This document shows positions 46,601 to 49,600 of a stretch of 64,000 nt of DNA, in pieces. Every line of letters begins with the position of its first letter. The first letter of the stretch is position 1. The stretch comes from Paraspadella gotoi (Eukaryota; Animalia; Chaetognatha): positions 5,844,382 to 5,908,381 of the forward strand of contig CM119263.1 of NCBI GenBank assembly GCA_051294375.1. The letters are read 5' to 3'. The notes beneath the pieces were generated by a model. The model made no database searches. It was not told where the DNA came from and saw nothing but the letters and a program-made list of their open reading frames with translations. Both the position numbers and the translations under genes were made by a program.

Positions 46601-49600
46601 TTAACTTTTACTTATTTCATATTTAATTTTGTAATGAGAAGAGGGATGTTTGTTTTGTTCTGGAAATGGAGAGGGCAGGAAAGCTTTTCTATTGAATGAA
46701 TAAAAAAATAGTTATTTTGGCTGTAACGATTTAAAACAATGAATTTGTTAAAAAATCTTTTAAGCAGAGTTTCTTAAGCAAAGGCTTAGCCGCTTCATTG
46801 GAGGATGCATGTGCACATTTGACTCGATAATGGATGAAACCTTCAGCGGAGAGAACCTAGAGCAATATCTGCGAAAAAACTTTATCGTCGATGGCGAACC
46901 TTCTACCCTCGCCGTGCATATTTGCTCCATGATATCCACATCGGCTATGCTCAGGTACTTACATGTGCTTCCATGTTCTTACATATTGATTGGATTTGGC
47001 TTCAAAAATCCCGTTTGAAATAATTCCAGAATCTTCTTCCTCTTCCGGAATCCTCTTCCTTAATCCTTTCCTCTGTTTCCGGGTTTCATTCATCTGTGAT
47101 GATACTAAGACTTAATAAGAAGAATAAATTTAGTTATAACTGTAGTCGGGCATTGCCTAGGTTCACCCCGCCTATAAGCATGACACTTCAGTCGCGACCC
47201 GGTTGCTCACTGAGTAAAGCCATCAGCTCATGACCACTAGGTAGTGGCTTCAATCCCAATCGGTACCTACCTACCCTGCGGGAAGCGTGAAGATGACTGT
47301 AAGCCGCCTTGGGGGTGTGACCTCAAAACCCTCAAGCCTAGTTCCAAGCCCAGGACCCGTTCCATGGCTGCTAGAGAGGGTTAAAGAAGTTGCGGATACA
47401 ACTCTTCAGCCCCACTTAGCGCCTTATCCACATAACTACCATTTGCTGACTTTGCCTAAATTTTTATTCCTCTCATTATATTATTTATATATTTTAATTG
47501 CCTACACTTTTGAGTCTTATCACTTTTTTCAAATCAATTTAAGCTTGCGTGAAATGTCTGATGATTGGGACGAAAAAAAAGCACTGAGTTTTTTCAAGCT
47601 GTTTTACAACTGGACAAAGATAGGGGAGCGCTTTGTGTATGAACAGACAGCAGAAGCAACTACTTCTGCCGTGGCCCGCCAGTGGCGCTCGGCCGCCGAC
47701 TTTGGACGCCTCTTTGCCTACCTCACTCCGATCGAGATTACCAACGTCTCTTTTCTCTGGCGTCACGCAGCACAAATCGGGTTAACATGGTCCTTTCAAG
47801 ACATGATCTTCAAGAAGGTCCGATTGTGGGCAAGAGAGATAGAAGGGAGAGAGAGAGAGAGAGAGAGAGAGAGGAGAGAGAGAGAGAGAGAGAGAGAGAG
47901 AGAGAGAGAGAGAGAAGAGAGAGAGAGAAGAATTACCAGATTTTGATGACAAAATTAAAAACCCGATTCTTTCAGCTCTTCCGCAAATGCCCGGAACTCA
48001 TGGCCAAATTGACAGGAGACGCGACCATGGATATTGAAGAAGCGCTCAAAGTTTGTCCCTGAGTAAAAAAAAAAAACAACATTATTTTAAAGAAATTTAA
48101 AGGCTTCTGATTCGATTTAGTCGGAGCGCCTTAACCGACATACGGCGGAGTTAATTGTACACAAGGAAGACATCATTGCTGCTCTCTTTTATTATTCCTC
48201 TTTGCAAAACAAACTGGTGGATTTTTTCATCTTTCTCTCCTCTTGGGATTACTCCTTTCAAGAAGTCGATGCGATGCTAAGATTAAGTTATGGCGCCATC
48301 AATATGTACCTTCCTTTCGAGGATCTAGACTCTGTGCAGGTAAAGCGAAAAAAAAAAGATGGACGCCAAAGGCATTGATAAGTGAGAGCGATCGGGAGTG
48401 AATGGAAAGAAAGTTGTAAAGGTGTACATGATTGACGGTGTAGAAAATGTTTTTGTATTTTTTATACCCGTGGAGACGAAACGTCTTCGTATCGCCCGTC
48501 GAAATTTTTCAACATGAGTATTGCCGAAGAATTTGGAAGAAAAAGTCGTATTTAATATTTAGACTTTATTTCATTATAAAAAAATCCACCGGAAAACTCT
48601 TAAAAACGGAGTTTCCTCCGGGCGAAACGAAATTAGTGAGATTTCAAATGAAAACTAAAGTCGAAAACGATATCTCTCTTGGAATATGGGTTTTACCTAA
48701 ATGACCGCGAAAAATATTGGCCCATTTGAAAACTGGCCTAGGAAAAGTCAAGATGAAGAGGCTGGTTTTACAGGGCGCCACACCCGCAGCGGTGTCACCT
48801 CGTGGCGACAGCGAGACAGCATGTTCATGTAGTCCAGAGCTTTGGATCTGGCAGTAGGCCCATGCCTACAGGGGGGTTACCCGGTCCATCCCACTTTCTT
48901 CATGACAACCTCAGGGCTCGAACCAGGGACGCACATTGGGATGGTGCATTAGTCCACTGAGCCACTGAGGCGCTGCGAAAGAAACAGCTTTAATCCATCT
49001 GTGATGATAGGACCACCAGAAAGAGACAGTGGCGAGGCGTAACATCTTGTACAGACAGATTGAATTTTAATTCAAAGACAAATACTTTCCGGAAGAAAAA
49101 AAAATAATAAATAATTATTTACGCGTGACATCAATTAGTTTATTTCATGTAATTTGAATGAAAGACATTGTTTAAACCTTTTTTAATCCGCTCCCTACAG
49201 CAAATGGGCCAACATCTTCATGCGTCTTGGAGAAAATTCTATTCGATGATTGGAAGAAAATATAAAACTTTTCTCAGGAGGACGAATCAGAAGGAAGAAG
49301 ATGAAGAAGAGGAGGAATTGAAGGAAGAAGTTGATGAAGGTACCATATTTTTAGTTACGCCGGTCGGTCTGTCCGTCGGTCTGTCTCACTTACGTTCAAA
49401 ATATTCATAACTCGCCTAAAGTTGGTTGCTCATTCGTTAAGACATCCTCAAATCCTCAAACTATAAAGAATAAAAGACGAAATTCCGATGCAGCGCGCGT
49501 CATAAATACACTGGCTAAGAAAGTTACTCCGGAGCAACACATGGGATAAACCCATCTTGTTTATGAATCTTCAGTTTTTTTCTCTTCTCTTTTATCATTC

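Follow-up and report, generated by a model that had tools for sequence, protein, structure and literature searches.

Twister-like ribozyme cores in small tRNA-headed LTR elements of the chaetognath Paraspadella gotoi

A 64,000-nucleotide stretch of Paraspadella gotoi DNA (hereafter, the window) contains six copies of an RNA core that resembles a P5-permuted twister ribozyme, distributed over three families of short LTR elements. A preliminary description had proposed a twister-type fold and selection on RNA structure for the core at 48825-48905 by comparing two of these families; we find support for both proposals, and more strongly so with the third family added. The fold is very probably derived from twister and was under selection, and, judging from sequence, typical copies of at least one family probably self-cleave. 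We suggest, with somewhat less than even confidence, that the elements represent a new design of animal LTR retrozyme, a TRIM driven by Pol III that has an active, weakened twister (no P1, bulged P2) and replicates through RNA circles of ~370 nt.

LTR elements and the cores they carry

The core at 48825-48905 lies in an LTR of what we term family 3. The five further copies in the window come from two other LTR families, three from family 1 (46289, 59195 and 59569) and two from family 2 (20918 and 47141), the latter carrying the same core and having been absent from the preliminary comparison. The features are as follows.

48825-48905, minus strand: P5-permuted twister-like core, within the family-3 LTR 48754-49074
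48754-49074, minus strand: family-3 solo LTR, 321 bp, TG...CA, 4-bp direct repeat 49075-49078 / 48750-48753
48904-48976, minus strand: tRNA-like head of family 3, A-box-like motif 48954-48964, B-box-like motif 48914-48924; predicted Pol III promoter
46289-46522, plus strand: family-1 solo LTR, TA...CA, 4-bp duplication, tRNA-like head 46322-46394
46396-46471, plus strand: family-1 core; T1, T2, P2, P4 and P5 all paired, two P3 mismatches; predicted U^A cut site 46420/46421
59195-59429, plus strand: 5' LTR of the two-LTR family-1 element; core 59303-59378, U-1 at 59327
59430-59443, plus strand: primer binding site (PBS)-like sequence
59555-59566, plus strand: polypurine tract (PPT), two bases before the 3' LTR
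59569-59796, plus strand: 3' LTR of the two-LTR element; core 59671-59744, U-1 at 59694
20918-21177, plus strand: family-2 solo LTR, TG...CA, 4-bp duplication, A/B-box head; core 21035-21113, predicted U^A cut site 21057/21058
47141-47432, plus strand: second family-2 solo LTR, TG...CA, 4-bp duplication; core 47278-47360

The LTR nature of these sequences is borne out by their termini, 4-bp duplications, primer site and purine tract. Target duplications of 4 bp flank all four solo LTRs and were not found for the single two-LTR copy (59195-59796), whose 5' end is damaged, the first ~6 bases of 59195-59429 having diverged. This copy belongs to family 1, and none was seen in the window for families 2 and 3. 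Its LTRs enclose 139 bases that start with the PBS and end with the purine tract. The PBS-like sequence shares 13 of 14 letters with the tRNA-Trp PBS of Gypsy-32_NVi and Helenus-2_SyJa (PMC10886601 Fig S2), an assignment made against published sites of other species' elements rather than the host's own tRNA. The sole pyrimidine of the purine tract, at 59558, is a purine in ~100% of the depth of all four public runs described below. The least secure boundary is that of family 3, where a single TG/TA..CA pair with a duplication emerged among 4400 start/end pairs tried, enough for a chance hit to be conceivable; a hairpin at the 5' terminus, similar to that of family 1, lends this boundary support, and the ends rest on a single copy. 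Families 1 and 3 (46289-46312 and 49061-49074) open with a short hairpin with a ATTAAAAT-like centre, a possible end signal. Family-1 LTRs (46289, 59569) begin with TA and not TG; the purine tract is separated from the start of the LTR by a TG.

In every family, a tRNA-like head with A and B boxes directly precedes the core. By pattern search, five of the six LTRs have a B-box-like motif and four an A-box-like motif at the head; the B box of 59569-59796 is damaged by a 7-base deletion. ARAGORN called these heads at a lowered threshold and none at its default. No element contains a T4 run, an absence that is not significant (P 0.30-0.64 per element), and T4 runs are found 8-77 bases past each element.

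We mapped contigs from four public runs (three studies) on the two-LTR family-1 element. Contig depth over the element, interior included, was about four orders above that of the flank, a figure that is not a copy number. Run X9, which may be RNA, showed the same behaviour as the DNA runs and is left out as evidence of expression. In run X1, 96 and 139 contigs exit the element exactly at 59569 and 59796, respectively, into unrelated flanks. Family 1 thus has fixed ends and many insertion sites. Considering 40 of 79 differences between the contigs and the window copy, 23 of which were mapped onto the structure and which exclude the T1 mismatch at 59362, we found that at five places in the core where window copies have a broken or weakened pair, 94-99% of the depth has the pairing letter; core polymorphisms among these 40 are confined to the P3 loop and a single neutral pair at the end of P5. 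At 59473-59515, in the family-1 interior, contigs show a variant with an internal duplication of ~43-47 bases. A few contig joints fit tandem LTR or LTR-interior units, and mapping ambiguity is possible.

The two-LTR element sits in a ~1-kb intron (58851-59875) of an ABCC/MRP-like gene with minus-strand exons at 57337-58851 and 59875-60129; the best protein matches of this transporter are 31-48% identical and, where named, mostly animal. The element is antisense to the gene (a single case), so its ribozyme would be absent from the pre-mRNA. Elsewhere, the window is AT-rich and full of GA microsatellites. Long imperfect ACG/CGT and GA tracts, some in large inverted pairs, occupy 1-8500, and sequencing noise is possible there. 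A stop-free 1431-aa frame, hydrophobic in its C-terminal half and containing EGF and Ig domains, runs over 24104-28399 on the minus strand, and near it 28438-28714 is duplicated as 32214-32490, 3776 bp away. Two other dispersed AT-rich repeat families occur in inverted orientation (40971-41192 / 45299-45525 and 44722-45007 / 62202-62481).

Pairing, covariation and departures from the canonical fold

Read from 48905 to 48825 on the minus strand, the first half of the family-3 core consists of the P5 5' strand, a junction, the P2 3' strand, GA, T1' and six bases, and the second half of UAA, the P2 5' strand, T2, P3, P4, U, T1, AAGC, P4' and P5'. This is the element order of the Rfam Twister-P5 consensus. 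Landmarks are GA at 48890, UAA at 48879, with the predicted cut site between 48879 and 48878, and AAGC at 48842. T1 pairs at 3/3 positions, P4 at 5/5 and P3 at 7/8, with a single U-U mismatch. The strings quoted in the preliminary description for this core are present where it placed them, as is the change of the T2 G to C, which leaves T2 at 1/2 with a C-C mismatch at 48873. The strings quoted for family 1 proved to be drawn from more than one copy: only the LTR at 59569 has CCTGA/TCAGG exactly, only the copy at 46289 has the quoted P5 pair exactly, and T1 is intact in two of the three copies.

Across all six copies, the U^A cut site with its following A and the general-base G with its A are invariant and at twister spacing. 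T1 (PK2) is fully paired in four copies, 48825-48905 included, and at 2/3 in two; T2 (PK1) is 2/2 in five copies and 1/2 in 48825-48905, the single family-3 copy in the window, and shows no covariation. P4, which closes the U-NNN-AAGC loop, has three to five of five pairs per copy. A mismatch in T1, T2, P2 or P4 is present in five of the six, the core at 47278-47360 having one in T1 and one in P4.

Chance does not readily yield such cores. A strict twister descriptor in P5 order matched the window twice and matched none of 100 block-wise dinucleotide shuffles, whereas a relaxed one recovered five of the six copies and one junk site (43077) against a shuffle mean of 0.69 and maximum of 3. With a degenerate core pattern, five of the six copies were matched (0.00 expected); family 3 was missed because the pattern requires the T2 G. 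A core model built on all six (R1) found no seventh copy within the window.

The same motifs were sought in metagenome, viral and prokaryote collections, which contain little animal DNA, and all candidates were rejected as chance matches. The exact family-1 pattern had no metagenome match; its gapped form had seven loci, all of them lacking both P3/P4 pairing and any Rfam twister match. No viral match was found with the family-2 pattern. A loose pattern gave at least 120 viral loci, and among the matches listed one of 128 scored sites had T1 at 3/3 with P4 of at least 3/4; on 100 of the viral loci listed, R1 reached at best 17.4 bits versus 63-90 for its training copies. A shared-core pattern gave 48 prokaryote and 11 viral loci, the best with 10 of 14 pairs versus 12-14 in the window copies.

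We aligned the six cores without structural guidance; they stay in register between the junction and P4, the only gaps being those near the P3 loop. The preliminary description had named a structural alignment as a check on the fold; in the alignment of the six window copies, 89.5% of cells over 19 pairs are paired and eight pairs are changed on both sides, including two of the three T1 pairs and two P4 pairs. These values represent three independent families rather than six events, with the structure drawn from the same sequences; none of 500 shuffles reached the observed pairing and covariation, and pairing falls to 17-47% when the partners are slid out of place.

Families 1 and 3 share homology across the head and core (79/110 aligned bases; 0 of 500 shuffles). 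Compensatory change between them had been claimed for four helices; it stands for T1, P3 and P4, with one true double change each (3/19 aligned pairs; null p 0.002-0.004), and fails for P5. Although P5 is present in every family, it shares no common register between families, and it is thus a replaced helix rather than a compensated one. Between families 2 and 3, six to seven of the 19 pairs are paired double changes (null p 5e-5 to 2.5e-4), and all comparisons involving family 2 give five to seven (p 5e-5 to 0.007). On these alignments, the strongest covariation support comes from family 2, whose alignment to families 1 or 3 is not above shuffle level; the spacing is nevertheless kept. The ten unpaired core positions compared are identical among families, whereas only one to three of seven free positions are the same. 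The core that the preliminary description called unpaired (GGGA, TAACCC and AAGC) is in part paired: the GG of GGGA and the CCC of TAACCC form P2, and the GC of AAGC contributes to T2.

The cores depart from canonical twister in several respects. P1 is absent in all copies, its place being taken by a 6-nt linker with no shared helix. The P2 5' strand is 3 nt long and pairs at 3/3 only with a 1-nt bulge (four of six copies) or at 2/3 (two copies); the 4-bp P2 of the Rfam consensus occurs in none. The best match to Rfam Twister-P5, in family 2 (21043-21106), scored 10.4 bits against a cut-off of 37.6 (E 4.4). An Rfam search of family 1 at E 10 gave no match, and a scan of the whole window at E 1 gave no twister, and so none for family 3. 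In nested folding, P3 was supported in five of six copies, P4 in two and P2 never (probability <=0.05 in all six), and the twister-compatible fold lay 4-15 kcal/mol above the minimum, with pseudoknot energies not counted; fold z-scores were -1.7 to +1.3. In families 1 and 3 (46411-46426 and 48872-48884), the P2 5' strand can pair instead with a run of G that lies within or beside the P1 region. This predicted competing hairpin could damp cleavage.

Published work on natural twisters reports that P1 is dispensable and that bulges, deletions and imperfections in P2 are tolerated (PMC11662667). There, when the two-pair pseudoknot contained a single mismatch, the fraction cleaved fell on average from 0.76 to 0.53, with a bimodal distribution, and most such mismatches were strongly harmful. 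From these tolerance data, as far as that source covers them, the families are possibly active and the copy at 48825-48905 is probably weakened. The missing P1 and bulged P2 common to all families would be expected to slow cutting. We regard the copy at 48825-48905, in a solo LTR with a broken T2 pair, as probably a weakened leftover; that it is itself inactive as a ribozyme, as the preliminary description suggested, is plausible.

A proposed mechanism and its alternatives

To the observed anatomy, covariation and marks of mobility, the mechanism that we favor, at a probability of roughly 0.4, would add Pol III transcription and cleavage at U^A. Pol III would start in the tRNA-like head of the 5' LTR and read through; the twister would cut U^A in both LTRs, at 59327/59328 and 59694/59695, to release 59328-59694, a unit of 367 nt. 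Terminal redundancy is needed for ordinary LTR reverse transcription. Cutting in both LTRs would remove it, so circularisation of the unit by ligation would be required. With tRNA-Trp as primer at the PBS, a Gypsy-type partner would then copy the circle by reverse transcription and so regenerate the LTR-internal-LTR arrangement, and its integrase would insert the product and leave 4-bp duplications. Our analysis identified no autonomous partner element. Such a circle model is presented for plant LTR retrozymes in PMC4918200 and PMC7761336. Retrozyme RNAs are reported to be >70% paired; for the 367-nt circle the prediction is 54% pairing (z -1.1 versus shuffles), which counts against the retrozyme circle model.

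This low self-pairing of the cut-to-cut unit fits a twister that is active and serves a linear RNA, a reading that we consider unlikely, if the best of the alternatives. With slow or context-dependent cutting, useful transcripts would be cut in the 3' LTR alone; this cut would form the 3' end of the RNA and leave an R region of ~100 nt from the head start to the cut site, and the element would otherwise replicate as an ordinary Pol III TRIM. The weak P2, missing P1 and competing folds fit slow cutting; the elements lack a T4 run, and the core occupies, by eye, the place of a T-rich run that follows the tRNA part in many Helenus LTRs (as presented in PMC10886601). Yet the same core lies in the same local context in both LTRs, and selective cutting thus needs an extra assumption; moreover, given the T4 runs 8-77 bases past the elements, Pol III could terminate without a ribozyme.

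Somewhat less probable still is a passenger role: a SINE-like cassette of tRNA and twister would have entered ancestral LTRs, with covariation accumulated in that earlier SINE-like life and the fold now idle. An origin of Helenus by SINE insertion into an LTR was proposed by Kojima (PMC10886601), SINEs combining a tRNA/Pol III part with a hammerhead are described in Schistosoma (PMC6765202), and every copy in the window deviates from the canonical fold, most with mismatches. However, families 1 and 3 share a homologous head and core in which free positions have diverged and helices show paired changes, and family 1 is high-copy with its pairs kept in the depth, although a young burst would look alike.

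We think it improbable that the LTRs are pseudo-LTRs, or units of a SINE, whose mobility depends on a Penelope-like (Naiad) element with a P5 twister lacking P1. Naiads are reported to lack hammerheads (PMC8557442), and animal retrozymes have been linked to Penelope-like elements (bioRxiv 10.64898/2026.07.22.740005). The fixed ends, T(G/A)..CA termini, 4-bp duplications on four of four solo copies, PBS and PPT are the marks of an LTR integrase, whereas Naiad insertions are described as 5'-truncated partial tandems with tails (PMC8557442); the ribozyme module by itself may still have come from a Naiad. A conserved non-catalytic structure, such as a packaging, dimerisation or priming signal merely resembling a twister, would account for the sub-threshold Rfam score, absent P1 and non-canonical P2, but it is very improbable given that the catalytic unpaired residues (UAA, GA and the AA of AAGC) are invariant in all six copies at the right spacing to both pseudoknots.

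Relation to known ribozymes and retroelements

The core shares with twister type P5 (RF02684) its element order, UAA cut site, GA, pseudoknot T1, in five of the six copies a fully paired T2, the U-NNN-AAGC loop of P4 and the auxiliary P3 and P5. It differs in having no P1 and a 3-bp P2 with a 1-nt bulge in place of 4 bp, and in its sub-threshold score (at best 10.4 versus 37.6).

The two LTRs, tRNA-Trp-type primer site, purine tract and tRNA-like heads make the elements look like Helenus (TRIMp3; Kojima 2024, PMC10886601). As described there, Helenus elements are likewise short non-coding LTR elements with A/B-box tRNA-like LTR sequence, PBS, PPT, solo LTRs, several families per genome and, in animals, 4-bp duplications; Pol III transcription is not validated for Helenus itself. 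The elements in the window differ by the twister-like core after the tRNA part and, in family 1, by beginning with TA rather than TG. The text of PMC10886601 has no occurrence of "twister", and in its consensus file six short motif probes, which could overlook a motif broken across lines or one with a different T1 sequence, gave 19 matches, 0 of them in a twister context.

Plant LTR retrozymes (Cervera et al. 2016, PMC4918200; PMC7761336) are, by these accounts, similarly non-autonomous, with a ribozyme in each LTR, PBS, PPT, 4-bp duplications, solo LTRs and an inferred Gypsy-type partner. Features of their own are type III hammerheads, a tRNA-Met PBS and highly paired circles of ~700 nt, and no tRNA head is described in these accounts. 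The Rfam scan of the window gave no hammerhead match; the elements are therefore not LTR retrozymes by definition, and may work like them. Metazoan retrozymes are without LTR, PBS or PPT according to one review (PMC7761336).

Among animal elements, the twister T-variants of Perere-3/RTE LINEs (PMC8501958, PMC7761336) also combine a weak or absent P1 with a retrotransposon. These are non-LTR elements, in which a 5'-end ribozyme next to the target duplication is described as freeing the element from upstream RNA (PMC8501958). Hammerhead SINEs of Schistosoma (PMC6765202) share the order of a Pol III head followed by a self-cleaving motif; that motif is a hammerhead, in tandem non-LTR repeats with no PBS or PPT in the account given there. 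Reports of twisters in retroelements concern non-LTR families (PMC8501958, PMC7761336), and in the literature searched, which covered few subscription papers, we found none in an LTR element or TRIM.

What is new, on the sequence evidence, is the joining of Helenus-type TRIMs with a non-canonical P5 twister. Standard searches miss this form of twister, and such elements may therefore be overlooked in other genomes. The 367-nt unit offers a small testable system for RNA end formation by Pol III-driven LTR elements. If our reading is correct, two separately described element classes are joined in one, with a twister sub-form missed by Rfam, and the ribozyme-plus-LTR strategy of the plant elements arose again with another ribozyme and another promoter.
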